Source: a virus (taxonomy: Duplodnaviria; Caudoviricetes). Taken from it: DNA of 64,000 nt. Below the pieces are notes generated by a model. That model made no database searches and was not told the DNA's origin. It saw only the letters and a program-made list of their open reading frames with translations. Made by a program: the position numbers and the translations under genes. This document shows, in pieces, positions 25,420 to 42,926 of the stretch; positions within the stretch are counted from its first letter, which is position 1, and the number at the start of each line of letters is the position of its first letter. The stretch lies in the IMG/VR virus record IMGVR_UViG_3300031998_000027, positions 1 through 64,000 of that record. The stretch is one strand, 5' to 3'.

Positions 25420-26310
25420 AAAAAAGTTGGATGTAGTTGATGGGCTCGCGCCTTCTACGTCCAACTTCTTTTTTTTCGGAAAATCCGACAGCTTTGCGCG
25501 CAACCTCTTCTAAAATTCCGAATTATTTTCCAAAAAATTCGGGAAAATCGACGGGCTCGCGCCAACTACGTTCTACAACTTCAAAATATTTTCCAGAAAA
25601 TCCTCAAAGCCGCGATATTTTCCAGAAAAAATTTCAAAATCTAAAATTTACTTTTTTTTCTAAAGTCTTCCTCAGTAAAATTAACTTTATAGTGGTAGGT
25701 GGGGGAACCTTACTGGAGGGGGTAGTGTGAACCGAGAGGAACTCAAATAACCGAACGGCGAACGAAGTGAGCGAACTAGAACCCCCGAACCTTCCCAACC
25801 CAACCCCAAAGTCTAGCTCCTGAATGTACACCATAGCGTTGCAAGCGAGCGAAAGCGAGCGCGCAGTTGACAATAGCGGCCAATTGGCCGGAGCGCGAAG
25901 CGCGAGGACCGAGTGGCTCGCGCCTCCCCGAAGGGGAGGAAGGAGGGGAGCGTAATCCAAAAACGAAGAAGCAGAACGTATACGTAATACGTATACGTAT
26001 AGAGTATTGCGGAGAAAATTTTGAGGTCCCAGTGTACGCACACTAGGGGCTTTTTTCGCTATGAAAGGAGACTCTGACGTTGTGGAAAAGGGCTAAGGGC
26101 TGAGAAAGAGAAAGAGCGTTTTTGTATGTGGGAAAAGAGTTTGGAAGGGATAGAAAAGAGATAGTTGGTATAGAAAAGAGATAGTTGGTACCTGGTCCAA
26201 AATTTTACGACTTTCAAATTTTAATTTTTTTGAAAATTTTAAACGTGTCAAATTTTGACGCGTAGCTAAAAAAGAAGAGAGGACTTTCGTCCTCTCTCTT
26301 TCTTTTTTGG
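25420..26310. other. long repeat-rich non-coding region, candidate origin/terminus
   Basis: No credible ORF; hairpins, palindromes, GCGAGCGAAAGCGAGCG, 20-bp tandem repeat; lies between convergent genes. Confidence 0.45.
26151..26190. repeat. perfect 20-bp tandem repeat
   Basis: TAGAAAAGAGATAGTTGGTA x2. Confidence 0.9.
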
Positions 26311-26311
26311 A

Positions 26312-26686
26312 TTACTCCGCGATGGGAAGAATCCAACCCTTCTGGGTACCCTTACCCTTAATCTTCACATCAACGGAGGCGCAGAGTCCCTGCTTGCGCG
26401 CCTGAACGAGCAGGCCAGAAACCTTCTGCGGGGTGATGTCGGTCGCGCCGAGAGCAGCGAAGAGGTCGGTAGCGGTCTGCGGCTTATCCGTCAGAAGCCC
26501 AACAATCTTCTCAGTCAGCGGAGCGTTCTCAAGGGCCTTCTTCGAGGGCTTAGCAGCGCGCTTAGCGTTAGCGGTGTGAATCTTCTCAAGCTGGAGAGAA
26601 GCAAAATCACGCAGCTCAGCGGGAAGCGTCTCGTTCTGGGCGATAGCGGTGAAGAAGGCGGGGCGGGTCATAGTAGCGTTAGTCAT
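26312..26686 (-). CDS. basic winged-helix DNA-binding protein (paralog of 35632)
   Basis: LTEKIVGLL..KPQTATDL....ITPQKVSGLL..A...G..beta wing; high-expression codon usage. Confidence 0.7.
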   Translation of the reverse strand: MTNATMTRPAFFTAIAQNETLPAELRDFASLQLEKIHTANAKRAAKPSKKALENAPLTEKIVGLLTDKPQTATDLFAALGATDITPQKVSGLLVQARKQGLCASVDVKIKGKGTQKGWILPIAE

Positions 26687-26694
26687 TTTAAAAT

Positions 26695-26734
26695 TCCTTT
26701 CTGTGCGTTAAGCACTTGGCGTCGGTCGCCACCC
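26695..26734 (-). promoter_or_regulatory. structured 5' leader motif, copy 1
   Basis: GGGTGGCGACCGACGCCAAGTGCTTAACGCACAGAAAGGA; covaries with the copy at 36016-36057. Confidence 0.6.
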
Positions 26735-27141
26735 AAGTTTTTTTGAAGTAGGAGAGTTACTTTCTCTCTCACTTTCTATAATAATTATAACTGAATTTTC
26801 AGAAAAAATCAAAGTTTCACAGCTTCTAAGGAAATTTGACAGCTTTTATGCGCGCAGCTTCTGTGTTTGTCAAATTTTCGTAGCTTTCGTAGCTTGCAGC
26901 TTATTAAAATTTGACACGAGTGAAAATTTGCGCGCAGAATTGGTAAAATTTGGAAATTTCTTGCTAAAAAATGGAAGTTCGCTGTCAAATTTTGACATAA
27001 AATGGGAAAATTTGGAAGTTTAGTCAACATAATACTACATTATGTAAACTTTTTAGGTCAAAATTTGACAAAAGTGAAAATTAGATGATAAACATCTAAT
27101 TTATTGAATTGACAATTTCGGGTATATATGTTATAATTGAC

Positions 27142-27231
27142 TTGTCAAGAGGGAAGGAGTGCGAGACTCCCGATAGTCCGACCCATAATAGGTTACTTCA
27201 CCGAAATAAAATTAGACTTCCCTCTTGACAA
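27142..27231 (+). ncRNA. candidate small RNA closed by a 15-bp inverted repeat
   Basis: Follows TTGACA-17-TATAAT; TTGTCAAGAGGGAAG...CTTCCCTCTTGACAA; internal GGAGT/ACTCC hairpin; no ORF. Confidence 0.45.
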
Positions 27232-27267
27232 AATAAAAAGATGTGGTATAATTAAAGGAGAAAAAAA

Positions 27268-28391
27268 ATGATTAAGAAATTTTTTGCAACAATTTTTTAC
27301 TATTGCTTTGGTCTTCGTCCTTACGCAATAATTTGTACCTCTACCAACCACCCCTCTGAACCAGTTTTTGTTTTTACTCACGAACTGCTTTCACAAAAAG
27401 AAGTTGAAAACATAAATGGATTTTATACAATCTATGATGATTTATCTATGGTTGATTTTGTGAATAAAATGGTGCAGTTTAAGACGATAGAAAGAGTTGG
27501 CTTTTGGGAGTATGTGCGAAGTCGCTAAGTTTCGCACAAAAGCCCGAGCAAAATTTTTCAAAAAACTATTGACATTTATTTGGTTGTATGTTATAATGAT
27601 TATGCTGAAAGGAGATAGAAATAATGAATTTGAAAGATTGTAGAACTAAACTTGTAGTAAAAGGAATGGCGTGGATTGTTTACGAAAAAAACAATTCTAC
27701 TCCTCGCTTGGTTGCAAAGTATCCTAATTTCAATAAGAAAACTAATGTACCTGTTGAAGTCCTTGATGCGTATCATACTAACATAGATACTACAAAAGAA
27801 TTTACTACTCCACGCGATTTTAATACTTGGGGTGTGCTAAAATGGTGGAGTAAAAATTCTCCTAATGTTTGTTATGTTTATACTAATTATGAAGAGGAGT
27901 TAAGATAATGGAAAGACAGAAGTTTATAAATGGCAAGTTTTATTTTGCTTGTAGTGACCATATGTGGGCGCGCCCTAATAATTATTATATGGGAGATGCC
28001 TTTGATACTTATGAAGAAGCACTTGCAAAAGCGATAGAAATGGCAGAAGATGGTTCGTTTGATGATTGTGGAGTTTTTTTCTATTATAACGATAAGTGGT
28101 GGGGAGAAATTAAGGTAAGGGATTATTAAAATGAATGAAGAAACAGGAGGATTGTAAAGAATGAAAATGAAAGTTCCTTGGGAAACTGGGGGTTGCCTTG
28201 TGGATAGTCTTTTGCTACTATACCTGTGGGCGGTTGAGTATCGTGAGAATTTTGATGTAGAAAAAATTGAGGAAACCATTGAGGAAGCAAGAGAATGGGC
28301 AAGAAATACTTTTGTATCTATTTGCAAAAGCATTGAGAAGCAGGAAGGGAAGGAATTTGATTTTGAAGTAGAGGACGAAGATGAAGAGTAA
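27268..28391 (+). other. four small hypothetical CDSs (27268-27528, 27624-27908, 27908-28129, 28161-28391)
   Basis: SD sites; TTGACA/TATAAT promoters at ~27225 and ~27569. Confidence 0.7.
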
Positions 28392-28559
28392 CTGCCCTTG
28401 TGATATTGACGGTTTTTGTCCATACGATGCACAATATATTAATACTTGTGAATGGTATTGCAGCGAGGAAGAACCGCAAGATGAACCTAAAATTTGGGAG
28501 GAAAATTAAATCCTCCTTAATTAGATGTATTACATCTAACAAAAAAGAGGAAAAGAGTT

Positions 28560-29093
28560 TTATCTCTTTCCCTCGGGAATTGCTATGAGAACATTGTTTA
28601 CATTCTTCATTACATAAATCTTATCCCATTTATGTTCCTTTGGATAAAAACATCTCTTGTCCTTATCTACAATAATCGGCTCTTCAAATTCCCTTTTCAT
28701 TCTACGGAGTTCCTCAATAGGAACAATTCTATTGCGCGAATGATTGTTTTCGGATTGCAAGAGTTCATCATCAATTTTTATGTAAACAAGATAATGATTT
28801 TTGAATTTTCCAAACCAATCAATAAACTGCAATCTCTTTACTGCGGTTGGCGCATTGGTATCAACAACAACAGTTTCCCCTCGCATTTCGGCTTCAAAAA
28901 TTGCCTTGTAGAAGTCTATCCAAACATTAAAGGAAATTTCTTCCTTATCATAGACATTCTTATCATTAGCATAATAAGGCGCATAAAAATCATCAATACT
29001 AAGATAAGTATATTCGTTCTGTTTTGCAAAAGCCTTTGCATAAGTAGTCTTTCCAGCACCAGAAAGACCGCACATTAGATACATATCTCCCAT
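28560..29093 (-). CDS. P-loop kinase (AAA_33/polynucleotide-kinase-like)
   Basis: MCGLSGAGKTTYA, LSIDDF, VVVDTNA....R, R.R.VP. Confidence 0.75.
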   Translation of the reverse strand: MGDMYLMCGLSGAGKTTYAKAFAKQNEYTYLSIDDFYAPYYANDKNVYDKEEISFNVWIDFYKAIFEAEMRGETVVVDTNAPTAVKRLQFIDWFGKFKNHYLVYIKIDDELLQSENNHSRNRIVPIEELRRMKREFEEPIIVDKDKRCFYPKEHKWDKIYVMKNVNNVLIAIPEGKR

Positions 29094-29111
29094 TTCTTTT
29101 CTCCTTCTTCC

Positions 29112-29315
29112 TTATTCAAGTATTATTGTGGGATTTTCATAGACAGTAACCTCATCATCGGGCGCAAAATGATATAGACTACCACTTTGAAGGCTTACTG
29201 AATTTAATTTAGTATAATCTGTTACCATAAAAATAGTTCCACTACGCTTAAAGACATCTCCAATAGATAATTCACCAAAAGTAGTCGTTCCTTTTGTCTT
29301 GTCAATAATATTCAT
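29112..29315 (-). CDS. small beta-rich protein, family A
   Basis: FGELSIGDVF..FM.T..N.V.L.SG.LY.F..DD.V; similar to 37060 and 38932. Confidence 0.7.
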   Translation of the reverse strand: MNIIDKTKGTTTFGELSIGDVFKRSGTIFMVTDYTKLNSVSLQSGSLYHFAPDDEVTVYENPTIILE

Positions 29316-29421
29316 TTTTCTTTCTCCTTTCTTATTACGCCTTAATTATACCATATTAGGATAGTTTTGTCAATAAACTTAATTAGATGTTATACATCTA
29401 ATTTTTTTGAGGAAAGGCGGA

Positions 29422-29745
29422 TTACTCCGCCTTTTCTCTCTTTGCCTTATCTTTGGCAATCTTTTTTGCCTTTGCTTCCTCTGCGGCGGCTTTCTTTGCG
29501 GCTTTATCTTCGCAGTCTATCTTGTACTGCTCTCGCCTACCATAGCCGTCATATTCCTCATCTGCCGTACCCTTAGGAACCTTGACTACGATTTCTACCC
29601 AGCCCTCTTCTCCATCGGTTGCGACAGTAGGAAAGTTAAGGGTATTGGAAGCTATCATTCCAACATCTTCGCCGTTGTCGGCAAAATTTTTCAGAAGAGC
29701 AGAAATGATAGTGGCGCGAATTTCATTCGCATTGGCAAGTTTCAT
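29422..29745 (-). CDS. small protein with K/A-rich tail, family B
   Basis: GEDV...SN...FP.V...G...W..IV.KVP.G...YDGY; similar to 35164. Confidence 0.75.
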   Translation of the reverse strand: MKLANANEIRATIISALLKNFADNGEDVGMIASNTLNFPTVATDGEEGWVEIVVKVPKGTADEEYDGYGRREQYKIDCEDKAAKKAAAEEAKAKKIAKDKAKREKAE

Positions 29746-29851
29746 ATAGTTTCTCCTTTCTTTCTTTGTAACCTTATTATACTACCTTTTATTATACTTG
29801 TCAAGACTCTTAATTAGATGTGATACATCTAATTAGGAGGTTGCTTGGGAA

Positions 29852-30514
29852 TTATTCCCAAGCACCTTTCCTCATCTTTCTGTGTTGACGGATACATTTG
29901 GCAAATATTTCTTTTTCTATTAGTACATCTTCAAGTCCTGTATGATTTTCGGTGAAGCTATTATCTCCACTTATATATTTGTAGAGAATTTCAGCGGTTG
30001 CCCTTACTTTTCCATTCTTTTGACAGTAGCCATTTTTATTACACCATCGTATATATGTTCTCTGTTTACAGATTGTATCTTGTGCCATTTTTAGTGTATC
30101 CCACAAGGGAATACCATAAGGAAGAAAAAATCTTACTTTTGACTTTGTTATATAACGAAGTGTATAATTTACTGCACGATAATCAAATGGAGCATTATGC
30201 GCTATGATAGCTTTTACATTATACTTTTTACACAAATCGTGTATATGTTTTCTTGCCGTATAAATGGAAACAATTTGACGAGAGCCCTTTTTTATATCTG
30301 CTTCATATATAGGTCTTTTCTCTGCATAATAGGCAGTATCAAAAAGAGCCTTATCAGCGCAAAATATATCGTATATGATGAAGCTAAAAGTTTCATAAAC
30401 TCGCCCTTTTTTATCGTGAATTGCCCCGCCAAAATCATACATTATAGGACATTCAAGACTATTTGCCGTTTCTGTATCAATCGTTAAATAATAATTTTTG
30501 CGTTTGTCAATCAC
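29852..30514 (-). CDS. DEDDh 3'-5' exonuclease
   Basis: IDTET, AHNAPFD, WDTL, HTGLED. Confidence 0.85.
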   Translation of the reverse strand: MIDKRKNYYLTIDTETANSLECPIMYDFGGAIHDKKGRVYETFSFIIYDIFCADKALFDTAYYAEKRPIYEADIKKGSRQIVSIYTARKHIHDLCKKYNVKAIIAHNAPFDYRAVNYTLRYITKSKVRFFLPYGIPLWDTLKMAQDTICKQRTYIRWCNKNGYCQKNGKVRATAEILYKYISGDNSFTENHTGLEDVLIEKEIFAKCIRQHRKMRKGAWE

Positions 30515-30629
30515 TTATTTTCTCCTTTCTTATTTACATACTGATTATACCATATAATTCAGATTTTGTCAAGAGAAGAATTAGATGTAATACATCTAAT
30601 TAGTAAGGGGTAGTTTTTTTACTATCCCT

Positions 30630-31547
30630 CTACCTCATAAGGTAAACATCAAAGCCTATATCTTCAAGAGCATTTATTAGACAATTTATATCATAATAAA
30701 GGTCATCATCGGGAGTGATGTAGCGCGCAGTATTCTTTACAAGACCATAAAATGCGCCAGCTATATACTCCTCTGTTTCTGTAAGATTAAGGTCGCCGCC
30801 TACTATTCTTTCCATTCTAAAACCTCCCATATTCCCATTCTTCGGGCTCAATTATAAAATCGGCATAAACTCTTTCTGCAAGCTGAAATATTAGCTTTAG
30901 ATTATCGTGAATATCACCAGGCGGTAGCTCTCCAAAAATGTCATAGCACATACTGCGGAAAGCATCGTAAATACGATTTTCGGTTGCGTTCATAGAGTAT
31001 TCTGTCTTCTTTTTAGAGGTAACTTTCATTTTCTTCTCCTTTCTTATTTACATATTGATTATACCATATAAAGTTAAGTTTGTCAATTCTTTTTTTTAGA
31101 TGTGATACATCTAATTTAGGACTTTGAGGGCAAGTCGCGCCCTCAAGTCCAACAAAAAGAAAAGAAAAGAAAAAGAAATTCTAATTTATTGCCGCGGCGA
31201 CTATTGCGATGATTATAAAAATGATAATCGCAAGACCAACGCCAATCCAAAGCGGCGCGAGTACCCATATCCATTTCCAATCAATAACTCCGACAAGTTT
31301 CAGTATTACAAATACTATTGTAAGGATAATATCAAGTCCAAATCCATTATATGTAGTCTTATTTTCCATTTTCTTTCCACCTTTCAATTTTTTCAAAATT
31401 TTTCTTTACACATTCAAGAGTTTTTATAAAAATTTCCCATTTTTCATCGTTTGCGATTTCTTCCCTATTTAGGTGTACAACTCCGCCCCAACTATCTTCA
31501 AATATTATAGGATAATTATAATCTGTAGGATTGTATAATACTTTCAT
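30630..31547 (-). other. small CDSs (30630-30815, 30817-31029, 31181-31369 membrane protein, 31359-31547)
   Basis: SD sites; two promoter units; LTIVFVILKLVGVIDW.W.WVLAPLW two-TM phage family. Confidence 0.65.
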
Positions 31548-31675
31548 TTTCTTTTCTCCTTTCTTTTCCCTTTTGACATCTTTATTATACCATAATTTTA
31601 GGAAAAGTCAATATTAAGAATTAGATGTGACACATCTAATTGATAAAAAAGGAAAAAGGTGGAAATTTCCACCTT

Positions 31676-33277
31676 TTACCTAAATGCCCTCTGCAAAGCT
31701 ATAAATACATTTTCATACAGTTCATCTGCATATCTTGTAGTGTAAATAATTTTTGCAGTTTTCATTTTATCAAAAATATATTTATTGCTTCTTTCGGCTA
31801 TTATCGTTGTGTTACAAGTATCAGCACAACAAAATACCATATCATTATCGGGTTCGCAATCTCCGTCAAAAAGAATGATATTGTAATTGTAAGTATTTCC
31901 CTTTTGTAGAGTACGGAAGATTTTTCCAAAATTTTCATCTACTCTATTTCCACCATTTGGATTTATCAGACGATGATTTTTATCTTGCAGTATCTCTCCT
32001 ACTCCACAATGGACAATATCAAGAGTAAAATTTTTGTTTTTTCTTTCTACTGCCGTAAGGGCAATAATTAGCTTGTTAACAACATCTTTATTACGATAAA
32101 AACTACCACTTACATCAATAAAAAGGTTGAGATGCAGACTACCAAAGCGGTTATTTCCTCTTGCTTCAAGTTTTCTCTCAAAAAAGCGATAATCTTCATT
32201 TCCACAATAACGAGGGTTAAGTATTCCACTATGTCCTGTCGTTCCGTTTCCACTACTGTTCTTTTTATTAAAGATACTTATTATATTCATAAGTCTTTCA
32301 GTAAGAGAATTATCTATAAAACCGCCAAAAGCATTTGAGAAAATTCTGTCGCCAAGTCCATTTTTGCCACTTTCTCCGTTTTCTTCTTCTTCTCCGTCTT
32401 TCGCATTTTTATTATCTTGGTGTTCGTTATTTACATTATCTTCGCCATTTTCACCACTTTCATTATTTTCGCCGTTCTCGCCATTTTCGCCATTTTGAGG
32501 AAGATTAGCTTTTTCACCATTTACATTTTCACTAATTTTTTCCTCACCTTTTGTGCTTTTGGAAGCATCAATATTTTCCTTATCTTCTTTTGTTACTCCA
32601 TTTTCGTCACTAAAAGTCTGTATCGGAGAAATTCCGTTTTTATCAAAATCTTTACAATCTTTATCATCTTCAAAATTTTGCGAAGCATAGTCAGAGGGAT
32701 TTTTGGAAAAATCTTCTAAAACTTTTTTCCAGAGTTTTTCAACATCATTATGATAGTATCTTACTGCCCAATCAATGTAATTATTCTTTGCAGATATAAA
32801 AGCATAATTTTTTATAATTTTCTCTACTGCTCTTACAAGAGGTTTTCTACCTATACGATGACGGCAAAGGACAAAAAACGCTTGTTCGGGGCTTGTAATA
32901 GGCTCGCCATTATAAGGACTAATTGCATTAAGCAGACCATTAAAGTCTGTATTCATATAATAGCCTTTTAACAGAGTTTCTATTCTTTCATCTTCAAAAA
33001 TATTAAGCCATTTTTCCATCTCTATAAGAGGAGTAAGGACAGCATGTGAAACTTCGTGATAAAGGACGGAGCGAATAGCTACTTCCTTATCAATTTCATT
33101 TGCGCTTGACAGAGCATCTACAATATTCTTGTAGGCAAAGGTTATCTTATCTTCAAGTGGATTATACCGACTTGTTTCTGCTTCATTATCAAAGCATACG
33201 GCAATTTTTCTTTTTGCATAATACCCTATGGGTAGAGTTTCTGCAATCTCTTTAATCTCTGCAAAACTAATTTCCAT
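31676..33277 (-). CDS. VWA-domain protein with N-terminal HExxH metallopeptidase-like region (CobT-like)
   Basis: YHEVSH, NIFEDERIE, acidic linker, MIDAS DVSGS, ILFDG. Confidence 0.75.
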   Translation of the reverse strand: MEISFAEIKEIAETLPIGYYAKRKIAVCFDNEAETSRYNPLEDKITFAYKNIVDALSSANEIDKEVAIRSVLYHEVSHAVLTPLIEMEKWLNIFEDERIETLLKGYYMNTDFNGLLNAISPYNGEPITSPEQAFFVLCRHRIGRKPLVRAVEKIIKNYAFISAKNNYIDWAVRYYHNDVEKLWKKVLEDFSKNPSDYASQNFEDDKDCKDFDKNGISPIQTFSDENGVTKEDKENIDASKSTKGEEKISENVNGEKANLPQNGENGENGENNESGENGEDNVNNEHQDNKNAKDGEEEENGESGKNGLGDRIFSNAFGGFIDNSLTERLMNIISIFNKKNSSGNGTTGHSGILNPRYCGNEDYRFFERKLEARGNNRFGSLHLNLFIDVSGSFYRNKDVVNKLIIALTAVERKNKNFTLDIVHCGVGEILQDKNHRLINPNGGNRVDENFGKIFRTLQKGNTYNYNIILFDGDCEPDNDMVFCCADTCNTTIIAERSNKYIFDKMKTAKIIYTTRYADELYENVFIALQRAFR

Positions 33278-33430
33278 TTTCTTTTTCCTTTCTTTTTTTT
33301 GTTCTCTTGTCTTATTGACAAGTCAATTATAGCATACAAAAGTCAAATTGTCAATAGTATTTCAAAAATAGGAATTAGATGTGATACATCTAATTCATAA
33401 AAAGAGAAAAGTGGGAATTTTTCCCACTTT

Positions 33431-34408
33431 TCAGACAAGAGCAGAGAAAAGGTCATCAGCAGACAGAGTAAACTTTTTAGTTACTGCACACCTATCGACA
33501 AGAGGTTCGGGCAGACCATAAGTCATTCCATTTACTGTCAAATTCATCGTGCCGATAATACTGAAATTTTCGCTTATCTCTATGACATTTCCCTTATAAG
33601 TGATAGCAGACTTATTATCCAAAAGACCTTGCAGAAAACGGAGTGTATCATAAGGAAGCAGATTTATCTCGTCCATAACGATTGTTCTTCCGTCCGTCAT
33701 AGCCCGCCAAAAGTCAGAGGGCTTGTAAGTTGCTTTTCCGTCCACAAAGACAAAATCTTCCATAAGGTCAGACGGAAGCATTGAGGAATTGCAGACAATA
33801 GGCTTGCTTCCACTTTCTGTCATAGCTATGGTGGTCTTGCCTGTACCCTGTGAACCGTAGTAAAGTCTAAATCTATGATTGACTACCTTTGTAGGCTCAA
33901 CAAGACTAATATCAAGGAGAATTTTTTCAAATTCCTTTGAAGTGATTTTAGCCTTTATCTCATTACAGTATGGACTATCAATCAATTCAAAGTAATTAGT
34001 TACATACTGCGTAGCAGACTGTCGGTTAATTTTAAGGTTAATAGCAAGTGTATTCACAAAACGGAAATTAGGCTCAAAATCAAATTCCTTGAAAAAGTCC
34101 ATAAGTCCTTTTATACCATTGATTGCCCTTTCCTTTTTCCTTTCATCAGTAAGAGTTTCTACAAGCTCTTCTTTCGTCATTCCAATCTCGGGATAAAAGA
34201 CCTTAGCGACATTTGGATAACGGCGAGAAAACATCTCCTCATCGTTTACAAAACTTGTTCTTGTTCTGTCTGCTTCATTTCTCATAGCACGATAAAAGTC
34301 ATCAAATTCTCTCTCGTGCGCTTTTACGGCAGAGGTTATCTCTACATTATTGAGATAATAAATTCCCTCTTTACTCTTGCGAAAATTAAAACTTGCGCTA
34401 ATAAACAT
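33431..34408 (-). CDS. MoxR/CbbQ/CobS-type AAA+ ATPase
   Basis: GSQGTGKT, IVMDEINL, IIGTMN, LPEPLVDR. Confidence 0.85.
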   Translation of the reverse strand: MFISASFNFRKSKEGIYYLNNVEITSAVKAHEREFDDFYRAMRNEADRTRTSFVNDEEMFSRRYPNVAKVFYPEIGMTKEELVETLTDERKKERAINGIKGLMDFFKEFDFEPNFRFVNTLAINLKINRQSATQYVTNYFELIDSPYCNEIKAKITSKEFEKILLDISLVEPTKVVNHRFRLYYGSQGTGKTTIAMTESGSKPIVCNSSMLPSDLMEDFVFVDGKATYKPSDFWRAMTDGRTIVMDEINLLPYDTLRFLQGLLDNKSAITYKGNVIEISENFSIIGTMNLTVNGMTYGLPEPLVDRCAVTKKFTLSADDLFSALV

Positions 34409-34584
34409 TTTTTTCTTCCTTTCTTTTTTTCTTTTTTTTTGTTCTCTTGTCTTATTGACAAGTCTATTATAACATATTTTGCGAAAAAGTCAATAGTTTT
34501 TGCAAAATAGAATTAGATGTAATACATCTAATTAGGAAGAAGGCGCGAGTTGGATAAAAATTCCAATTCGCGCCGTGTGATTTT

Positions 34585-35055
34585 TTAGAAAATCTTTTGA
34601 CATTCACTCGCAAAATATTTTGCGTTAAACTGATTACAAATTTCAGTTACTTTTCTTGTATCACTTTGTGTAGCACAATAAAAATTGAAAAGTGTATGTT
34701 TATCGCTAATTCTTATATAGCTATGCGGAATATCATCAAGAACATTATCAATCTTTTCTGTAAATTCAGTAGGAACAGTCACTTCCACTTTCCACATCTT
34801 GTCCTTTTTCATCTTTTCCTCTATCAGCTTTACGATGAAAACACCGATAACATTACAGACAAAAGTTATAACGCATTTCTGCCACATAGGAAAGTCCATA
34901 ACAGTATAGACAAGGACAATGTTATAAAACGCAAAGTAAGCACCGCTTATTAGGCTTGCAAGCGTTTTACCACTTTTTATAGTAGTGATTGAACGGACAG
35001 TAGAAAAGATAACATTGACAATGGAGAGAACGACAAACACAATAATAAATTTCAT
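34585..35055 (-). CDS. membrane protein (DUF5698/DUF2179-like)
   Basis: Three N-terminal TM segments (NVIFSTVRSI..IK.GK..AS) and a small soluble C-domain. Confidence 0.55.
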   Translation of the reverse strand: MKFIIVFVVLSIVNVIFSTVRSITTIKSGKTLASLISGAYFAFYNIVLVYTVMDFPMWQKCVITFVCNVIGVFIVKLIEEKMKKDKMWKVEVTVPTEFTEKIDNVLDDIPHSYIRISDKHTLFNFYCATQSDTRKVTEICNQFNAKYFASECQKIF

Positions 35056-35163
35056 TTTGATTTTCCTTTCTTTTTCTTTTTGTATACTAATTATAACAAA
35101 ATTTTAGGCAAAAGTCAAGATGGATAATTAGATGTGGTACATCTAATTAAAAAAACGGGGAAA

Positions 35164-35505
35164 TTACTCCCCGTTTTCCTTCTTCTTCCTCTTTGCGCTA
35201 TCTTTTTCTATCTTTTTTGCCTTTTCGGCTTCCGCTTTTGCCTTTTTTTCTGCCTTTTCCTTAACCTTTATTTTATAACTTTCCGCTACTCCATATCCGT
35301 CAAATCCGTCCTCATCTCTTGCGCCAGAGGGTACTTTTATGACAATCTGTATCCATTTGTCATTTCCCTCACTATCAACACAAGGAAAAGCACATTCATT
35401 TGAATTGGTCTGCATTACATCTTCGCCCTTTTCGGCATAGAACTCCATTATAGTCTGTAAGACCTTTTCACGAAGTTCATTATCCAAAACTCTATTATTT
35501 GCCAT
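35164..35505 (-). CDS. small protein, family B
   Basis: Paralog of 29422; AAGGA SD before MANNRV. Confidence 0.75.
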   Translation of the reverse strand: MANNRVLDNELREKVLQTIMEFYAEKGEDVMQTNSNECAFPCVDSEGNDKWIQIVIKVPSGARDEDGFDGYGVAESYKIKVKEKAEKKAKAEAEKAKKIEKDSAKRKKKENGE

Positions 35506-35631
35506 ATAAAATTCCTTCTTTCTCTTATTTTCTATAAAAATTATATCACAAATTTGCGAAAAAGTCAAATTTTTAATTAGATGTTGTACATCTAATTAGG
35601 GTGAGAGGGGAGATTTCTCTCCCCATTCTCA

Positions 35632-36006
35632 TCAGTCAATCCAATAGACCTTGCGAGTACCAACCTTGGGTATCTTCACATCGGCGCTATTGACTACGCC
35701 CTCGCCAACAAGCTGACGAGCGAGAGAGCCAGCCTTGTTGTGCGACTGTCCAATGCCCGCGCCAAGCTCAACCTCGGTGAACTTCTTGCCCTTGTTGTCA
35801 TTGAGATAGCCAATCAGAGCGGTCTTAATGGGAGCATTAGCTTCCGCCGTCTTGCTCGGCTTCTCAGCGCGCTTCGCCTTGCGCTTCTCAATGAGCGCAA
35901 GCTGACCCCTTGCCCAATCACGAGTATCCTCGGGCAGAGTGCTATTAGCGATAAGGGTGAGATGCTCAATCGTAGTCTTCTTCGGGGCGGTCTCGGTCAT
36001 ATCCAT
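35632..36006 (-). CDS. basic winged-helix DNA-binding protein (paralog of 26312)
   Basis: KRAEKPSK.A..NAP shared; FTEVEL..IG.S.NKA.SL.RQLV.EG..DVKI..G..K.W. Confidence 0.7.
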   Translation of the reverse strand: MDMTETAPKKTTIEHLTLIANSTLPEDTRDWARGQLALIEKRKAKRAEKPSKTAEANAPIKTALIGYLNDNKGKKFTEVELGAGIGQSHNKAGSLARQLVGEGVVNSADVKIPKVGTRKVYWID

Positions 36007-36015
36007 AGTGGTCTT

Positions 36016-36057
36016 TCCTTTCTGCACTTTTAGTGCGCTTGCGTTTGGTCGCAACCC
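36016..36057 (-). promoter_or_regulatory. structured 5' leader motif, copy 2
   Basis: GGGTTGCGACCAAACGCAAGCGCACTAAAAGTGCAGAAAGGA. Confidence 0.6.
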
Positions 36058-39000
36058 TTTTTTTTGAGGTTCCTGTCCTCTTTTACAAGGTTATTATATC
36101 ACAAAAGCTTTTGTTTGTCAATAGTTTTTTGAAACTTTTTTTGAAAATGTCTGTAGCCACATTTTCGGTTTTTAGTTTCTTTTCCCTCTTGACATTTATA
36201 ATTATATCACAAAATCCCAAAAAGTCAATAGGGTAGAATTAGATGTAATACATCTAATTAAAATTGAGGACAAAAAGTCCTCAAGAAAATGTGTTGAAAT
36301 AGACAAAGGTAAATACAGTGAGTACTGTAATAGCTGTTCCCATAAGAAAGCGGCCAAGCCGCTCATTTAATACCATTTGTCCAATTACATTAAGAATAAG
36401 GGTGATAAGATAAAGAACAAAAGTCCATTTCATTTTTATAGCTCCTTTCAAATAATACCCATACAAAAAAGGGTTATAAGACAATCCACTGCGACAACGC
36501 CAAATAGCGAGACAAAGCCGATGAGGGCTTCTTTTATTCCACAGTTTATAAACAAATCAATAAAAATCCAGATTAGTGCGACTATACCCGTGGCTATTAG
36601 AATGGATACCGCGATAATTGCTTTAATTTCCATTTTTTGAATTTTCTCCTTTTCTTTTTCTTTTTGTAATTTTATTATACTACATTTTCCAAAAAAGTCA
36701 AGAAGATTAATTAGATGTAATACATCTAATTAGAAAAAAAAGCAGGATTACTCCTGCTCTTTTTCTCTTTCCTTATAGAAGTGAATGATGGTATCCGCCA
36801 TATCATCAGCGATCATACAGGTAACCTTTCCATTATCCCAAGGGAAGCCCATTGACTCAACGAAGCCCTCGAGATGACCATAGTTATCACTATGACAGAT
36901 AACATCAGCGTTCTCAGCCCATTCAAAAACAAGCTGCGCGCCGTCATAGAGACGACGAAACTTAAAGGGAATATCATTCACGAGAAGTCTAACCCCTATA
37001 TGTTCAATGGTAGCGAGGTGAATAGCAACGGCTTTTGTCATTTTTTTTGAAAACTCCTTTTATTCTATTACTATAGTAGCGTTAATAACTACTACCTTAT
37101 CATTATTACTAAAATCATACCAAAATCCACTTTCCAAATTGATAGCTGCTCCTGAATTATTAATTTCATCAGTTTTCATAAAAGCTTCATCTTCATACCT
37201 AAAAATCGTTCCCTCTGTAATTTCGCCAAAACTAACCACATTTTTGTCAATAATTCTTGCCATTTTCTGAAATCTCCTTTTCTTTTTTTTATTTTGTACC
37301 TTTATTATAGCAAAAATTTTGAAAAAGTCAATAGGGTGATTTAGATGTAGTACATCTAACTAAAAAAAGGGAGAAAATCTCCCTTTCTTAGTACTCATCA
37401 AAGCCGCTGGCTTCAGCTTCCTCTTCGGTCAGCTTTCCCCCATAAAGGAGTTTGGGCGTTTCGCCCTCTTCGAGATAGAACTCAAGCTCGACAGCAAGCT
37501 TATCGACTATTGTCACTGCCTCACTAAGATAGTTCGCGCCGACAATGAACTGCTTACCGCTATTAAATTCTTCAAACAGATAGTACTTCATTTTGAAAGT
37601 CTCCTTTTCTCTCATCTTTGTACCTTTATTATAGCAAAAATTTTGAAAAAGTCAATAGGGAAAGTTAGATGTGATACATCTAATTACTCCCCTTTCGGGG
37701 ATTATTGTTTTAGCTTTTAATTTCTATAGTTACAATCGCTACCTGTAGAAGATGGATATTACCGACTTTAGGCCAATCATCATTCACTTTAACGCAATAA
37801 CCGCCGCGTTTCCCTTGTGTTATAGTCCATTTCTCATTACAGGTATATTCTTTATAATATCTATTGCGGATGATGTTTTTTGCCTTTTCAAAAGCTTCAT
37901 CTAAATTTAGAAAATAATGTTTTCTATTTACTAAGTATGCTCTCATGTTTCTCCCTTGCTTTCTGAATACAGTATAGCACACTTGCGGCTATTTGTCAAT
38001 ACCTTTTTCAAAATTTTTTTGCCCGGGCGAAAGCTGACCGCAAGGTCAGCAATCATCGGTATAGCACCCCATGTAAGGGTCAAAACCGCAATCCTCGTTA
38101 TAACCCCAATCTTCAAAATCGTTCTCAGGTTCACGCTCAATGGTGGCAACGACCTCGCCAGTATCCCAATCGCAGATGATGCCAAGCATAATGCGAGAGT
38201 TCTGCTCCATCTTGTATTCAATGAAGTCAGCACACTCACGCAGGTCATGCGGCATAGACTCGTTGCGGTAATCAATTACCTCATTGTTGGTATAGGCGAG
38301 GGAGCAATAGAAATGTCCGTAGTTCTCAAACTTGATAATCATTTTGTGATTTTCTCCTTTTCTTTCATCTCTGTACCTTTATTATAACACAATTTTTCAA
38401 AAAGGTCAAGTCTTAAAATTAGATGTGTTAAATTAGATGTGATACATCTAATTACTCCCCTTTCGAGGAGAAATTAGTTTTTATAATCGCATCAACAACC
38501 AGGCTGTGCGAGGGTAATTACCCTCGCTTGAAGTCTACATTGACATTAGAAGTAAATATCATTCTCAGTAGAGTAATAATCAGCGTAAGCAGAAGTACAA
38601 GCTTCCAACTGAAAGCGACAGTCCAAGTGCCGATAGCGACTACACCAAACATAGGAAGCAGAGCGCAAATCCCCCAAACAACTCCTGCAAAGCAGAGAAA
38701 AGACAGCGCACAACCTACAATCAGAGCAGTAATCCAAGACAGAATTTTCATTTTTTTTATCTCCTTTTCTTTTTTGTGATTTTATTTATTTTTTATCTCA
38801 TTTACAAGTATATTATAACACAATTTTCAGAAAAATCAAGTCTTAAAATTAGATGTGTTAAATTAGATGTGATACATCTAATTATAGAGGAATAGGGTGC
38901 GGTCGTCGCGCACCCTCTCCTCTTACTCCTTTTAGGTGAGGACCAGCTCGGCATTAACGGGCTGAACAAGCTCGTCAAGCTCTATGTGGTACAGCTCGCC

Positions 39001-40768
39001 ACTCGCAAAAAAGAGGGCGTTGCAGGCATCTCCGAAGCGGTCCTCTACGACCTCGGTTGCCATATAGACATCCTCGTCATAGATGAAAACATCGCCGACG
39101 AGCAGAGTACTGAGGGGGACCAGAGCAGTAGAAGTGTTGTTAGTGATAATCATTTGTTTTTTCTCCTTTTCTTTTTTTGTGATTTTGTTTGTTCTCTGTC
39201 TCATTGACAAGTCTATTATAACACATTTTTCAGAAAAGTCAATAGAGTGAATTAGATGTAATACATCTAATTATTCCCCTTTCGGGGAAAATTACTCAAT
39301 CTCGAGATATTCGTAGTTGAGCAGGTCACACAGCGCGCTATCAACCGCATTGGCAAGGTTTTCCAGCTCACCATGTATAGAGGAGTGGTCATAGATGCGG
39401 TTTATAAAAGCAAAAACCTCTTCCAAAAACGCGCGGTCTTCCTGAGTGAGAATAAGGGTTTCGGTTGTTTTGATAGTCATTTTAATTTTCTCCTTTTCTT
39501 TTGTTTTTGTACCTTGATTATACTACTTATTGCATAAGTTGTCAATATGGTAAATTAGATGTAATACATCTAATTATGGAGAGAGCCTTTACAGGCTCTC
39601 TATCTCTCCAGTCTGAACATTAAAGCGATAGTCGTTGATGTAGCAGTCTTTCGCTTCGTAATAGCTGCCCCTCTCGCCGTTCGGATAGCTTACATACTCT
39701 TTCATAAACGCGCCGATGTGCTTGCGGGTAGTCTGACTATAAGTGCCAGTGCAAGTAAGCCAGCCGTCATGTGTCAGCTCGCACACAAGAGTGACATAGC
39801 TGTAAAGGTAAATATTGCCGTCCTCGTCAATTTCAACATGGGCCTGTGCATAGGGCATCGCGGAAAGTTTCTTGATAATCATTTGGGAAAATCTCCTTTT
39901 CTTTTGTTTTTGTACCTTTATTATAACAGAAATTTTCGGAAAGTCAATAGTCTGAATTAGATGTAATACATCTAATTAAAAAAAAGTAGAGATTAAATCT
40001 CTACCTTTTTAATTATAAAGTGGTCATAAATCTCGCCCGTCTCGCGACTGACGAGAAGATATGTAAAACCATCTGTGACCGAAGTAGAGTAAAGAATTAC
40101 ATCAGCATCAGAATAGTCTTCGCGCGAACGATAGACATAGTCGCAAGCTTCGTTTAGGCTTCTGTAGGGAATCGGCGAGACATAAAGTTCGTCCTCGACG
40201 GGAGTGCGCGAAATTACGATGTAGCAAGTCATTAGAAAATCTCTCCTTTTCTTTATCTTTGTACCTTTATTATAACAGAAATTTTCGGAAAGTCAATAGT
40301 CTGAATTAGATGTAATACATCTAATTCGTGAAAAAAGGGGAAAATTACTCTCCCCTTTCAAGTTCCCTTAATTCATCGTGAAGTTTGAACCACTTTCTCT
40401 CGTCTTCGTAGTCCCAAAAATCTTTCATATCAAGGTCAAAGATTTTTTCTTTGAGTTCCTTTATTCTCTTTTCTTTTTCACTCATTGTAATAGCTCCTTT
40501 TAGAGTGCGTTGAAAATAATGCCGATGCAGACGACACCCAGCATGCCGACAGCGATGGCAATATAAACCACAGCGGACAGCGGATTGACATACACAGCAA
40601 GCGCAAGTATAATGGCGATGACGGCGAAGATGATGAGAAAAATATCGAAAATTGTCTTTTTCATTTTTGGAACTATCTCCCTTTTCTTTATCTTTTGTAC
40701 CTTTATTATAACAAAAATTTTTGGAAAAGTCAAGAGATAGAATTAGATGTACTACATCTAACTTAATT

Positions 40769-40876
40769 TTCTATAAATAAGGCAAATTACTCCGAGTGAC
40801 TTTTCATCCCCATCCCAAGGGCATTACCACAAGGGCTTAGCTACTGAGTGTCTTTCTTTTTGCCTTATTTATAGAA
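40769..40876 (-). ncRNA. candidate non-coding element bounded by an 18-bp perfect inverted repeat
   Basis: TTCTATAAATAAGGCAAA...TTTGCCTTATTTATAGAA; no ORF. Confidence 0.4.
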
Positions 40877-40890
40877 TTGAAAAGGGATTT

Positions 40891-41010
40891 TGTCAAGGGG
40901 ATTTCAAATTTCTTTGAATTTTTTGAGCAACACCACAAGCCTGCGCATGGCTTCTCTTGCGGTCTCTTTTCTCCGTTTGGGACTTTACGTTTATCTTTCT
41001 CCCCTTGACA
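40891..41010 (-). ncRNA. candidate small RNA closed by an 11-bp inverted repeat
   Basis: Behind its own promoter; TGTCAAGGGGA...TCCCCTTGACA. Confidence 0.4.
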
Positions 41011-42237
41011 CTTATATAATACTACTTATTTTATCTTTTGTCAATATCTTAAATTAGATGTAATACATCTAATTATGGAAAATGGGGAAAAATTCCCCAT
41101 CTTCTCAATATTTATATTTATCAAGTCCGCTCATTTCAGCTTCTATGTCAGACAGCTCGTCAATGAAAACGACATCGTCAATGTCTTCAACGACACCATC
41201 AGACCACAGGTCTTCAAGGATTGTTAGTGCATCAGCATAATCCTCTGCGCCAATGAGGAAGCGGAAACCCTCGCTAATTTCTTCAAACAGAAAATTTCTC
41301 ATTTTTTTTGAAAATCTCCTTTTCTTTTGTTTTTGTACCTTTATTATAAATGATAAATTCTAATCTGTCAATATGTGAAATTAGATGTGTCGTTTTAGAA
41401 TTAGATGTAATACATCTAATTATTTTAGGAAAAAAGAGGACTATTTTAGTCCTCTCTCCCATCAAAAAACCATTTTACGGAAAAATCCTCGAAAACCCAT
41501 TCTATGGAAATTCCGTCCTGAAACTCCCAAGAGCTTGCATACATTATGTAGCCGAGAGCCGCCTCAGCTTCTGCCGTGAGGTTCTGCTCGCAGATGTAGA
41601 CTTCTATGACCTCACCACCATCGTCATAGATGTCGCCGAGGTAAGAAAACGGCGCGAGCATATCAAGTATTTCATCGTAAGTCATTTTTGGAAAATCTCC
41701 TTTTCTCTTAAATTCTGTAATCATTATAAACGATAAATTCCAAAAAGTCAATAGTACGAATTAGATGTGATACATCTAATTTCTAAAAAGGGAAAAAAAC
41801 CCTTTTTAGTTTTATGACTTCATTTCATGATAAATAGTTTCCAGAATTTCGAAAAGTTCTGAATCATACTTGTAAGGAATTTCTATGCGATTAATATCCT
41901 CGCAATTTTTGAAAAAGATATGAACTACATTTGTGTAACGATTGACTGATACATTTCTGATTTCTTCACAGTTAATAATCTGATTTTCAAACTTTACTAC
42001 TTTCATGATTTTATAACCTTTCCATAATTTCTATAAAATTTTTGTCAAAGGTTTTTCAGAAAATATTTCACTTTTCTGAAAATTGGTCTATTATTATTTA
42101 ACTACTTAACCTCGTTATTTTGTACTCGGTACCGTTATTCTCGGTTCTCCCCTTTGACATAGACATATTATCACATATTTTAGGAAAAGTCAACGGAATA
42201 AATTAGATGTGATACATCTAATTAAAAAAAAGGAAGA

Positions 42238-42396
42238 TTACTCTTCCTTTTTCTCCCAGTAGCGGATATATACGCCCTTGTGCGCATCTGCGTAGGCGCG
42301 AGCTTCCTTGTAGCTCGCATAGTGCGCGATGACCTTCGCGCCGCGCATAGCGTCAAAGCCCTTGCTCTCGTCGACAGTAACACCATAGATAGACAT
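42238..42396 (-). CDS. 52-aa protein, family E
   Basis: MSIYGVTVDESKGFDAMRG; tandem paralog of 42535. Confidence 0.75.
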   Translation of the reverse strand: MSIYGVTVDESKGFDAMRGAKVIAHYASYKEARAYADAHKGVYIRYWEKKEE

Positions 42397-42534
42397 AGTA
42401 ACTCCTTTCGAGGCGGCCGCCCTTTTGTCGGCTCCGTTCCTCATTGTCTGTATGATACCACATCCGGCGACAACTGTCAATAGACAGAATTAGATGTGAT
42501 ACATCTAATTCCACCACAAAAGAAGAAGGGGAGC

Positions 42535-42693
42535 TCAGCTCCCCTTCACCGCCCAGTAGCGGATATACCGCGAGCGGCTCTCGTCCGCGTAGGCGCGGGC
42601 GTCCTCGTAGCGCTCGAAGTGCGCGATGAGCTTCTCCCCGCGCATGACATCGAAGCCGCGGCTCACATCGACAGTAATCCCATAGATAGACAT
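42535..42693 (-). CDS. 52-aa protein, family E
   Basis: MSIYGITVDVSRGFDVMRG; promoter and leader also duplicated. Confidence 0.75.
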   Translation of the reverse strand: MSIYGITVDVSRGFDVMRGEKLIAHFERYEDARAYADESRSRYIRYWAVKGS

Positions 42694-42926
42694 AGTAACT
42701 CCTTTCAGAGGCGGCGACCCTTGCCGTTCGCTCCGTCCCTCATTGTCTATATGATACCACATCGGGCGCAGTCTGTCAATAGGTGGAATTAGATGTGCCA
42801 CATCTAATTCTTTAACGATTTAAATCAATGAAGTGCGAGACACATCTAATTCTTTAACGATTTAAATCATTAAAGTGTTAAAGTAAAAAGAGGGGAAGCT
42901 CAGCTTCCCCGAGGGGCGAGAGGGGC

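Follow-up and report, generated by a model that had tools for sequence, protein, structure and literature searches.

The window analysed here covers the first 64 kb of a virus record that consists of one contig (116,286 bp, about 37% G+C; IMG/VR record IMGVR_UViG_3300031998_000027, called G000 below), and the only sequencing runs containing its DNA are bovine gut metagenomes. From about 27 to 43.5 kb the window holds a leftward array of small genes, nearly each of which has its own terminator, promoter and ribosome-binding site, and upstream of most of these promoters lies a 23-bp palindrome with the core TTAGATGT-N3-ACATCTAA. We describe here the fixed helical phase of this palindrome relative to the -35 element, its occupation of the place that upstream promoter (UP) elements take in sister phages, and its co-inheritance with a single orphan gene at 42927-43427, whose product (P4) probably binds it.

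Copies were searched for with the pattern AATTAGATGTNNNACATCTAATT, at most 3 mismatches being allowed, and 100 dinucleotide-preserving shuffles served as the control. We observed 28 copies of AATTAGATGTnnnACATCTAATT in the window, 21 of them perfect, and 0 in the shuffles; all 28 are confined to 27079-42809, and no copy occurs in the remaining 52 kb of the genome. Read on the transcribed strand, a unit consists of an upstream terminator, the palindrome, a short gap, TTGAC(A/T), 16-17 bp, usually TGn, and TATAAT, followed by a short 5' hairpin, AGGAG and the start codon. About 26 early promoters, near-consensus for sigma-A, carry the upstream palindrome at a phased distance. In 26000-44000 an independent consensus scan returned 32 promoter-like sites that match at 11 or more of the 12 positions, and strong promoters that have no palindrome are located at 27225, 27569, 36121, 37999, 40896 and 43818, several of them with a UP-like tract. 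The copies are listed below, where the gap (in bp) is the distance from the palindrome to the best TTGACA-16/18-TATAAT match.

27079..27101, plus strand: palindrome, 1 mismatch; gap 7 to TTGACA-17-TATAAT at 27109
28519..28541, minus strand: palindrome, 2 mismatches; no credible promoter downstream
29381..29403, minus strand: palindrome; gap 7, TTGACA-17-TATAAT
29812..29834, minus strand: palindrome; gap 7
30579..30601, minus strand: palindrome; gap 6; unit containing gene 29852-30514, for a DEDD-type exonuclease
31094..31116, minus strand: palindrome, 2 mismatches in the outer flank; gap 7
31619..31641, minus strand: palindrome; gap 7
33373..33395, minus strand: palindrome; gap 18, with a UP-like A/T tract as filler; unit of a VWA-like 533-aa gene
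34511..34533, minus strand: palindrome; gap 17, with a UP-like A/T tract as filler; AAA_5 ATPase unit
35126..35148, minus strand: palindrome; gap 7
35575..35597, minus strand: palindrome; gap 6
36237..36259, minus strand: palindrome; gap 8; belongs to the upstream one of the tandem promoters of the winged-helix gene 35632-36054
36709..36731, minus strand: palindrome; gap 7
37339..37361, minus strand: palindrome, 2 mismatches; gap 7
37663..37685, minus strand: palindrome, 1 mismatch; gap 7
38417..38453, minus strand: full palindrome 38431-38453 and proximal half-site 38417-38426; half-site 7 bp from the -35
38847..38883, minus strand: full palindrome 38861-38883 and proximal half-site 38847-38856; half-site 7 bp from the -35
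39250..39272, minus strand: palindrome; gap 7
39553..39575, minus strand: palindrome; gap 7
39955..39977, minus strand: palindrome; gap 7; unit of the DUF8033 gene 39589-39882
40304..40326, minus strand: palindrome; gap 7
40741..40763, minus strand: palindrome, 1 mismatch; gap 7
41052..41074, minus strand: palindrome; gap 7
41379..41421, minus strand: full palindrome 41399-41421 and proximal half-site 41379-41388; half-site 7 bp from the -35
41759..41781, minus strand: palindrome; gap 7
42201..42223, minus strand: palindrome; gap 7
42488..42510, minus strand: palindrome; gap 7
42787..42809, minus strand: palindrome; gap 7; first full unit past the candidate binder gene

Helical phase of the palindrome relative to the -35 element

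The first-pass annotation of this DNA had given the gap as exactly 7 bp in 22 units (three of them by way of an added half-site), 6 bp in two, 8 bp in one and 17-18 bp in the two AAA/VWA units, and our re-measurement bore this out. We found 7 bp directly in 19 units (18 on the minus strand and the plus-strand copy at 27079, which, as had been claimed, obeys the same rule for a rightward promoter) and by way of an added proximal half-site, ACATCTAATT, in three others; of the remaining units, those at 30579 and 35575 have a gap of 6 bp and the one at 36237 a gap of 8 bp, while 33373 and 34511 have 18 and 17 bp.

When IMG/VR was scanned for exact matches, the motif turned up in 12 further viral contigs, in the same arrangement. 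Four genomes taken whole (G001, G002, G004 and G005; 141-190 kb) have 30-41 copies each, within one early region of 16-19 kb. These phages are remote from the window phage, with a terminase about 36% identical and a homolog of the sigma-like protein P0003 (described below) 23-28% identical, and the 16-nt core is identical among phages whose proteins are 23-40% identical. Together with G000 they provided 152 units, in which the gaps were 7 bp (104 units), 6 bp (26, this being the norm in G004), 8 bp (5), 15-18 bp (10) and 26-37 bp (7); 135 of the 152 lie at 6-8 bp, and none lies at 9-14 or 19-25 bp. The information content of the 101 gap-7 units examined from the five genomes was about 2 bits at the 16 core positions, 0.6-0.8 bit at the 3 positions of the centre and 0.1-0.3 bit at each gap position, which indicates that the length of the gap is conserved and its sequence is not. 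Variability had been reported earlier for the gap and for the centre of the palindrome alike; it holds fully for the gap, and the centre is variable yet biased.

To these we added sister phages, for which 80 of the 188 IMG/VR relatives of P0003 were taken, each with 10 kb of flank and with P0003 as the anchor. Many of their early promoters have only UP-element-like A/T tracts directly upstream of TTGACA, and in sister phages that lack palindromes the tract is of the 'aaaattttttaaaaaaggg' type. Other N3 palindromes are found as well, namely TTAGACGT-N3-ACGTCTAA, TGGGACGT-N3-ACGTCCCA, TCGTACGT-N3-ACGTACGA and TTAGACTA-N3-TAGTCTAA, together with a few types of N2 or N4 spacing (GTAGTCTG-N2, TTGTTAA-N4 and AGTTAGC-N4). 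The gaps of the N3 types in the sister phages were as follows.

TGGGACGT type: 7 bp (79 units), 27-28 bp (6)
TTAGACGT type: 5-8 bp (69 units), 16-17 bp (49), 25-28 bp (10), 37-39 bp (4)
TCGTACGT type: 5-7 bp (25 units), 15-16 bp (3)
TTAGACTA type: 15-17 bp (27 units), 6 bp (4)

Across the N3 types, the gaps thus form a series with a period of about 10.5 bp and almost none between the clusters. The site is held on one face of the helix relative to the -35 element, as is characteristic of a protein that binds DNA and acts together with RNA polymerase; such phasing is not explained by descent of the block, by a recombination site or by a terminator. A fixed helical phase with displacement by whole turns tolerated is the behaviour of an upstream regulator. 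The earlier suggestion that the palindrome is the site of a symmetric DNA binder on a set helix face is accordingly backed by the phased gaps in the units of the relatives.

The position so occupied is that of the UP element. UP-like tracts are present at the same position in promoters without a palindrome, and a UP-like tract also fills the gap in units with gaps of 16-18 bp; from these two observations, the palindrome takes the place of the UP element. It is not itself such an element, that is, an A/T tract that acts with no accessory protein, since it has invariant G/C positions, is palindromic and differs between phages.

A candidate binder encoded at the head of the array

A screen for association between protein families and palindrome types singled out the product of the first gene of the array.

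42927..43427, minus strand: candidate binder gene (P4), 166 aa; first array gene; divergent neighbour of the sigma-like gene; orphan family
43482..43516 (approximate), minus strand: promoter of the candidate binder gene, TTGATT-17-TAATAT; no upstream palindrome; half-site TTAGATGT at 43498-43505 in the spacer

In jackhmmer searches the P4 family was found in 17 of 17 TTAGACGT loci, 9 of 9 TGGGACGT loci, 2 of 2 TCGTACGT loci and 3 of 3 TTAGACTA loci, in addition to G000 and G026, and in no locus with N2 or N4 palindromes or with UP-only promoters. When 59 loci with at least 2.5 kb of flank were scored, 30 had both an N3 array and the P4 gene, 29 had neither, and 0 were discordant. On the tree of P0003 the joint state of array and gene changes 15 times by parsimony, and 10 of 10 independent pairs on supported branches were concordant (sign test p 0.002). 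Divergent P4 homologs occupy the same position, with the same motif, in a distant clade in which TAG is recoded (hhalign probability 86.7%, E 4e-6). The P4 homologs of these relatives contain no in-frame TAG, while their sigma-like genes contain 3-6, which points to early expression of the P4 gene.

Two further observations connect the gene with the site. One cognate half-site is located inside the core promoter of the P4 gene itself in G000, G026, L098 and L074, which suggests autoregulation, or self-limitation of P4, through the half-site in the spacer. Also, the P4 proteins of G000 and G026, both of which use TTAGATGT, are sisters (support 97), and the neighbouring genes of the 2 phages are not.

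Other candidates from the screens did not persist. The DUF8033 protein (39589-39882; model pLDDT 95) at first appeared only in TTAGA(T/C)GT genomes (6 of 6 versus 0 of 4), and was ruled out when G026 (93% complete) and G028 (100%), both with TTAGATGT, and G012, with TTAGACGT, proved to lack it. The association pattern of the 116-aa product of 280-630 vanished with a more sensitive search. A presence/absence screen of all G000 open reading frames in 12 genomes gave no family specific to TTAGATGT.

An alignment of 23 diverse P4 members showed conservation of G21, G24, E28, D50, E63, K65, Y82 and Q129. Four of these residues form a PD-(D/E)xK-type motif, E..D..ExK, with spacings of 22 and 13 residues. 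Its D50 and K65 do not vary, conservation of E28 and E63 is 90% or higher, and the homologs from the distant clade keep the motif. The E28..D50..E63-x-K65 spacing is one that we take to resemble that of Hjc-type resolvases. The best Pfam match, to the RE_EcoO109I core (E 0.085, not significant), covers exactly the motif stretch. All 175 homologs that we found are unnamed metagenome proteins.

The region of the gene has two peculiarities of composition. The candidate gene and the two adjacent units (42001-44000) are G+C-rich, at 45% versus about 35-36% around them, which suggests a separately acquired module. Between the candidate gene and the sigma-like gene, phased A-tracts of the form (G)GCGAAAAAA recur every ~10-11 bp over 43560-43625, and this DNA is probably intrinsically bent.

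Predicted mechanism and alternative explanations

We favour, with modest confidence and on the evidence of sequence comparison, the reading that the palindrome is an operator for the phage's own 42927-43427 protein, and that this protein is predicted to contact RNA polymerase. A P4 dimer would sit on TTAGATGT-N3-ACATCTAA, its two 8-bp half-sites having centres 11 bp apart on one face of the helix, at a site whose centre is near -54 or is displaced upstream from there by one to three helical turns, and would touch RNA polymerase by way of the alpha C-terminal domain or sigma region 4. Some 26 early promoters would then be under one switch. The phage itself would be a lytic one of the cattle gut, SPbeta-like by its packaging module; in this module, the terminase, portal and neighbours are distantly like the SPbeta-type yonG-yonF-yonE genes, the terminase resembling YonF.

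As to the sign of the effect, we lean slightly to shut-off, in which P4 would over-stabilise or capture RNA polymerase in the manner of phi29 p4 at A2c; an activator that replaces the UP element is nearly as likely. The lean comes from the controlled promoters, which are near-consensus (TTGAC(A/T), 16-17 bp, TGnTATAAT) and have an extended -10. Shut-off is favoured also by the nature of P4 as an early product, absent at time zero, and by the site in its own promoter, which is in a repressing position. Activation is favoured by the replacement of a stimulatory UP element by the site, by the periodicity of the allowed positions to about -85, and by the retention of a proximal UP-like tract where the site is displaced by one turn. 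If shut-off is the outcome, it would fall on the host-takeover genes, and the promoters without a palindrome, including those of the P4, winged-helix and sigma-like genes, would stay on. There is precedent for one factor acting in either sense: repression of A2c by phi29 p4 is reported to go through the alpha subunit of RNA polymerase (Monsalve et al. 1996, as cited in PMC11806353), and stabilising transcription factors are stated there to repress or to activate according to basal promoter strength (PMC11806353).

Several observations weigh against P4 as an operator-binding regulator. Near-consensus promoters need no activator and a site at -54 cannot block RNA polymerase sterically, so a special mechanism is needed for either sign. 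The loci in the association test were unequally complete, and in three distant genomes the state 'both present' was assigned manually. The nearest P4 homolog found, that of L190 (62-63% identity), belongs to a phage with 14 TTAGACGT sites and no TTAGATGT site, and palindrome type switches 5 times on the P4 tree and 6 times on the tree of the neighbour; thus fine specificity is not clearly tied to P4 phylogeny. Inspection by eye showed nothing clear among the residues that might set T versus C at half-site position 6. For the P4 product, Pfam gave no significant match, PHROG and NCBIfam returned nothing consistent, and PDB profiles gave no match up to an E of 10; its nuclease fold, read from the motif, is putative. 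Conservation of E28, D50, E63 and K65 at 90-100% is what is expected of an active nuclease over a pure DNA binder. Finally, in the pair L102 and L108, whose identity is 93% beginning at the sigma-like gene, the shared early genes (90% identity) form patches bounded by palindromes.

These last two points lead to an alternative that we consider unlikely, though not negligible, namely that P4 actively cuts or nicks DNA as a site-specific endonuclease or nickase, with the palindromes as its targets. Recombination and shuffling of the promoter-gene-terminator units would then be driven by breaks or nicks at the cassette borders, in the manner of integrons or of the PeSL promoter/stem-loop cassettes, which mediate such shuffling in T4-type phages (PMC2839356), or else the cuts would relieve supercoiling, and the fixed distance to the -35 would be largely inherited with the unit. 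The conserved E..D..ExK residues, the weak match to a type II restriction enzyme core, the location of the gene at the head of the array, and the patchwork of L102 and L108 would all fit, as would the hypervariability of the arrays, in which most G000 early open reading frames have no homolog in relatives. Yet arrays are equally variable in sister phages that have no P4 gene, and a phage that made 28 double-strand cuts in its own DNA early in infection would pay a high price. The geometry also speaks against cutting sites: descent does not account for gaps of 5-8, 16-17, 25-28 and 37-39 bp with almost nothing between, nor for a gap whose length is conserved and whose sequence is free, and in three units the 7-bp rule is regained through an extra half-site. 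One protein could have both roles, and a recruited protein of nuclease fold might bind first and cut later. The first-pass annotation had preferred an operator to a recombination site; its phased operator stands, whereas its dismissal of DNA cutting or recombination is not secure, because the nuclease-type residues are kept. A more specific form of the P4 reading, which we put forward tentatively and think doubtful as a whole, is that a restriction-endonuclease-fold protein with its catalytic residues kept was recruited as an RNA-polymerase-contacting, UP-element-replacing factor at dozens of early promoters, and that its specificity diversified (TTAGATGT, TTAGACGT, TGGGACGT, TCGTACGT, TTAGACTA) among otherwise near-identical lytic rumen phages, in a heteroimmunity-like fashion.

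The remaining alternatives dispense with P4. A host regulator or nucleoid protein might bind the palindrome, so that the phage reads the state of its host and the P4 gene is a mere passenger. We regard this as improbable. The identity of the 16-nt core among such distant phages would suit it; but among 185,579 bacterial species genomes just 2, of unrelated taxa, contain the exact 20-nt motif, a chance-level result, which also makes the host regulators named earlier as possible binders unlikely. Moreover, palindrome type differs between L102 and L108 despite neighbouring genes 93% identical in DNA, and between the tree sisters L091 and L095, and G000 and L061; the half-site variants, which keep T-N3-A and the N3 spacing, look like the targets of one diverging binder family; and the coupling with a phage gene is perfect. 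Very unlikely, in our judgement, are the three phage products that the first-pass annotation had proposed as binders:

26312..26686, minus strand: P0001, winged-helix paralog; palindrome-less promoter; rejected as the specific binder
35632..36054, minus strand: P0002, winged-helix paralog; own UP-type promoter 36121 and palindrome promoter 36228; rejected
43903..45231, plus strand: P0003, 442 aa, sigma-region-4-like helix-turn-helix (HTH) and C-terminal Zn-ribbon; palindrome-less promoter 43818; not the binder

P0001 and P0002 are 42% identical over 113 aligned residues, and the winged-helix model (pLDDT 90) is nearest, weakly (E 4e-3), to PadR/MarR-type regulators; 2-3 paralogs of this family, with an N-terminal helical hairpin, are present in every array-bearing phage, and P0003 has its HTH and adjoins the array, of which it is the conserved divergent neighbour (it has no homolog among GenBank phages). 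The DNA-reading helices of these proteins, however, do not change with the palindrome. The same ISTQKASALCRQLV-type recognition helix is found in phages with TTAGACGT, AGTTAGC, TCGTACGT or no palindrome, the recognition helices of G000 are unlike those of other TTAGATGT phages, and the P0003 HTH, KSYTANYISTIFRQKII, is invariant across all palindrome types. Both families occur in phages without any palindrome, the winged-helix one in nearly every phage of the clade (L061-L140 included), and strong conservation of ISTQKASALCRQLV implies a target common to all these phages rather than the palindromes. Least credible of all is that the palindrome acts as nucleic-acid structure, whether an RNA hairpin backing the upstream terminator or a DNA cruciform driven by supercoiling. 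It does fold, with a stem of 10 bp and a loop of 3 nt (as DNA, -6.5 kcal/mol; z versus shuffles about -7 to -8), and lies just past the terminator of the upstream unit, one copy being flagged as terminator-like. Against this, the arms are invariant in sequence and not covarying, a G+C-rich terminator with its own T-run stands apart from the palindrome in most units, a single added half-site restores the 7-bp rule with no hairpin, and phase with the -35 is meaningless for a terminator. Nor does the sequence resemble an intrinsic terminator, the stem having 3 G-C pairs of 10 and being followed by a variable 7-bp gap and then TTGAC.

Known systems and further features of these phages

With P4 as the probable binder, the nearest described analogue is the SPBRE element and its protein MrpR (YopR) of Bacillus phage SPbeta (PMC10516654). 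In each case, a large Firmicute phage has a short element repeated at the promoters of many of its early genes. MrpR is a phage protein with the fold of a DNA-processing enzyme, a tyrosine recombinase (PMC10516654); the candidate binder here is likewise phage-encoded, with a putative nuclease fold. The differences are several. SPBRE is a 15-bp consensus (about ATACAAAnAATATGTAT) of ~10 copies, unrelated to TTAGATGT-N3-ACATCTAA, and in the SPbeta record its placement varies, being upstream of the -35, in the spacer or after the -10 and in many cases overlapping the core promoter, whereas the 28 copies here are phase-locked upstream. MrpR maintains lysogeny and has lost its catalytic residues (PMC10516654), and P4 keeps residues of the catalytic type. 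A tblastn search of the whole 116-kb genome with SPbeta YopR gave no homolog (best E 0.51). Signs of lysogeny were likewise lacking: apart from the 2 chance-level matches, the motif is absent from the bacterial genomes searched, which gives no prophage copies, and no integrase was seen among the proteins scanned, a scan of the genome that was not exhaustive.

Phage phi29 p4, at A3 and A2c, is also a phage-coded dimer that binds an inverted repeat upstream of the -35 (a dimer being proposed here). Contact of p4 with alpha activates a weak promoter and represses a strong one. That protein, which differs in fold and site, controls three promoters from sites near -71 and -82, whereas the present site, at about -54 or at the periodic alternatives to it, is common to dozens of promoters. 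UP elements and class I activators of the CRP type occupy about -40 to -65, where the sister phages have their UP-like tracts, and class I activator positions are spaced by about one helical turn. The palindrome differs from the former in being sequence-specific, and from the latter in its centres, which are about -54, -64, -75 and -85 versus the CRP series of -61.5, -71.5 and further positions. By these comparisons, the palindrome appears to work like an upstream phase-dependent regulator site of the class I or phi29 p4 kind, in no named family tested.

Type II restriction endonucleases and other PD-(D/E)xK proteins resemble P4 in that the superfamily includes homodimers that read interrupted palindromes, as well as in the motif and the weak RE_EcoO109I match; but here the phage keeps dozens of the sites in its genome, at a regulatory position, which is contrary to restriction-site avoidance. 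The array is not an integron of the attC and IntI type, in that the gene at its head has no recombinase similarity and the SPbeta YopP and YopR queries match nothing. The PeSL cassettes of T4-type phages are alike in that their genes are small and for the most part orphans, and that each has a strong promoter of the sigma-70 type by a stem-loop (PMC2839356, PMC4122927). Their repeats mark mosaic borders, and the palindromes here may do so too, the shared patches being bounded by them in the one pair compared, L102/L108. They are unlike in that the PeSL stem-loop is a terminator and that no dedicated binder or fixed -35 phase is described for them (PMC2839356, PMC4122927); most palindromes here have separate G+C-rich terminators upstream, and just 1 palindrome scores as terminator-like.

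We know of essentially no account of early-gene control in large uncultured Firmicute phages of the gut and rumen, and the arrangement looks like a new way of phage early-gene control in one block, with one short site in one helical phase governing nearly the whole 15-kb host-takeover region. Site and UP element have been swapped at least 10 times among relatives (10 supported contrasts; 15 parsimony changes), and the site travels with a single orphan gene. The pair would constitute a directly testable regulator and operator in a phage group that has no cultured member. The five operator variants would offer a natural series for the co-evolution of DNA specificity and promoter architecture, and the strong consensus promoter, 23-bp operator and 166-aa factor could be orthogonal parts for Gram-positive synthetic biology. 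Should a nuclease fold indeed act on RNA polymerase, it would be the second case, after MrpR, of a DNA-processing enzyme fold as early-gene master regulator.

A literature search on motif words returned unrelated papers only, and the array DNA matched nothing among GenBank phages. The most widely conserved early-array gene of the phage group is 29852-30514, which encodes the DEDD-type (RNase T/DnaQ-like) exonuclease. TAG is a sense codon in late genes of G001, G002, G004 and G005, and not in the window genome; the P0003 homologs with 3-6 in-frame TAG codons are L048:1004-2314 (G002), L059:10160-11488 (G004), L038:8632-9933 (G005) and L029:9837-10877 (G001), with TAG aligned to Gln in one case.

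Early promoters of L108, L119, L128, L134 and L140 have further recurrent upstream elements, for example TTTGTGCAAtTTAC, direct repeats of TTTACATAA, and CTTGTTAA-N4-TTAACAAG, the last lying one turn further upstream with UP-like filler. Such elements hint at several regulator-site pairs within one phage. 5-Methylcytosine in ACGT could mimic T in the major groove.

In the window itself, a ~30-bp direct repeat, tgatttaaatcgttaaagAATTAGATGTG, at 42809-42875 includes one complete palindrome and one truncated copy with the left arm only. Iteron-like repeats, AAATTTGACA and AAAATTTGGAA, are clustered at 26810-27075, in the divergent region between the 26312 operon and the 27109 promoter, and may represent a replication origin or the binding array of another protein. 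Downstream of the rightward palindrome promoter at 27109 come first a long hairpin, GTCAAGAGGGAAG...CTTCCCTCTTGAC, and then the palindrome-less consensus promoter at 27225; this stretch (27137-27225) may be a leader or a small RNA. In many early transcripts a short hairpin would directly follow the -10, with the sequence CTTGTCAATAAGACAAG in the window (for example at 33297-33325, 34440-34465 and 39190-39212) and GTTCCAAGGGAAC in relatives L002-L018, and this hairpin may be a 5' stabiliser or a further control element.

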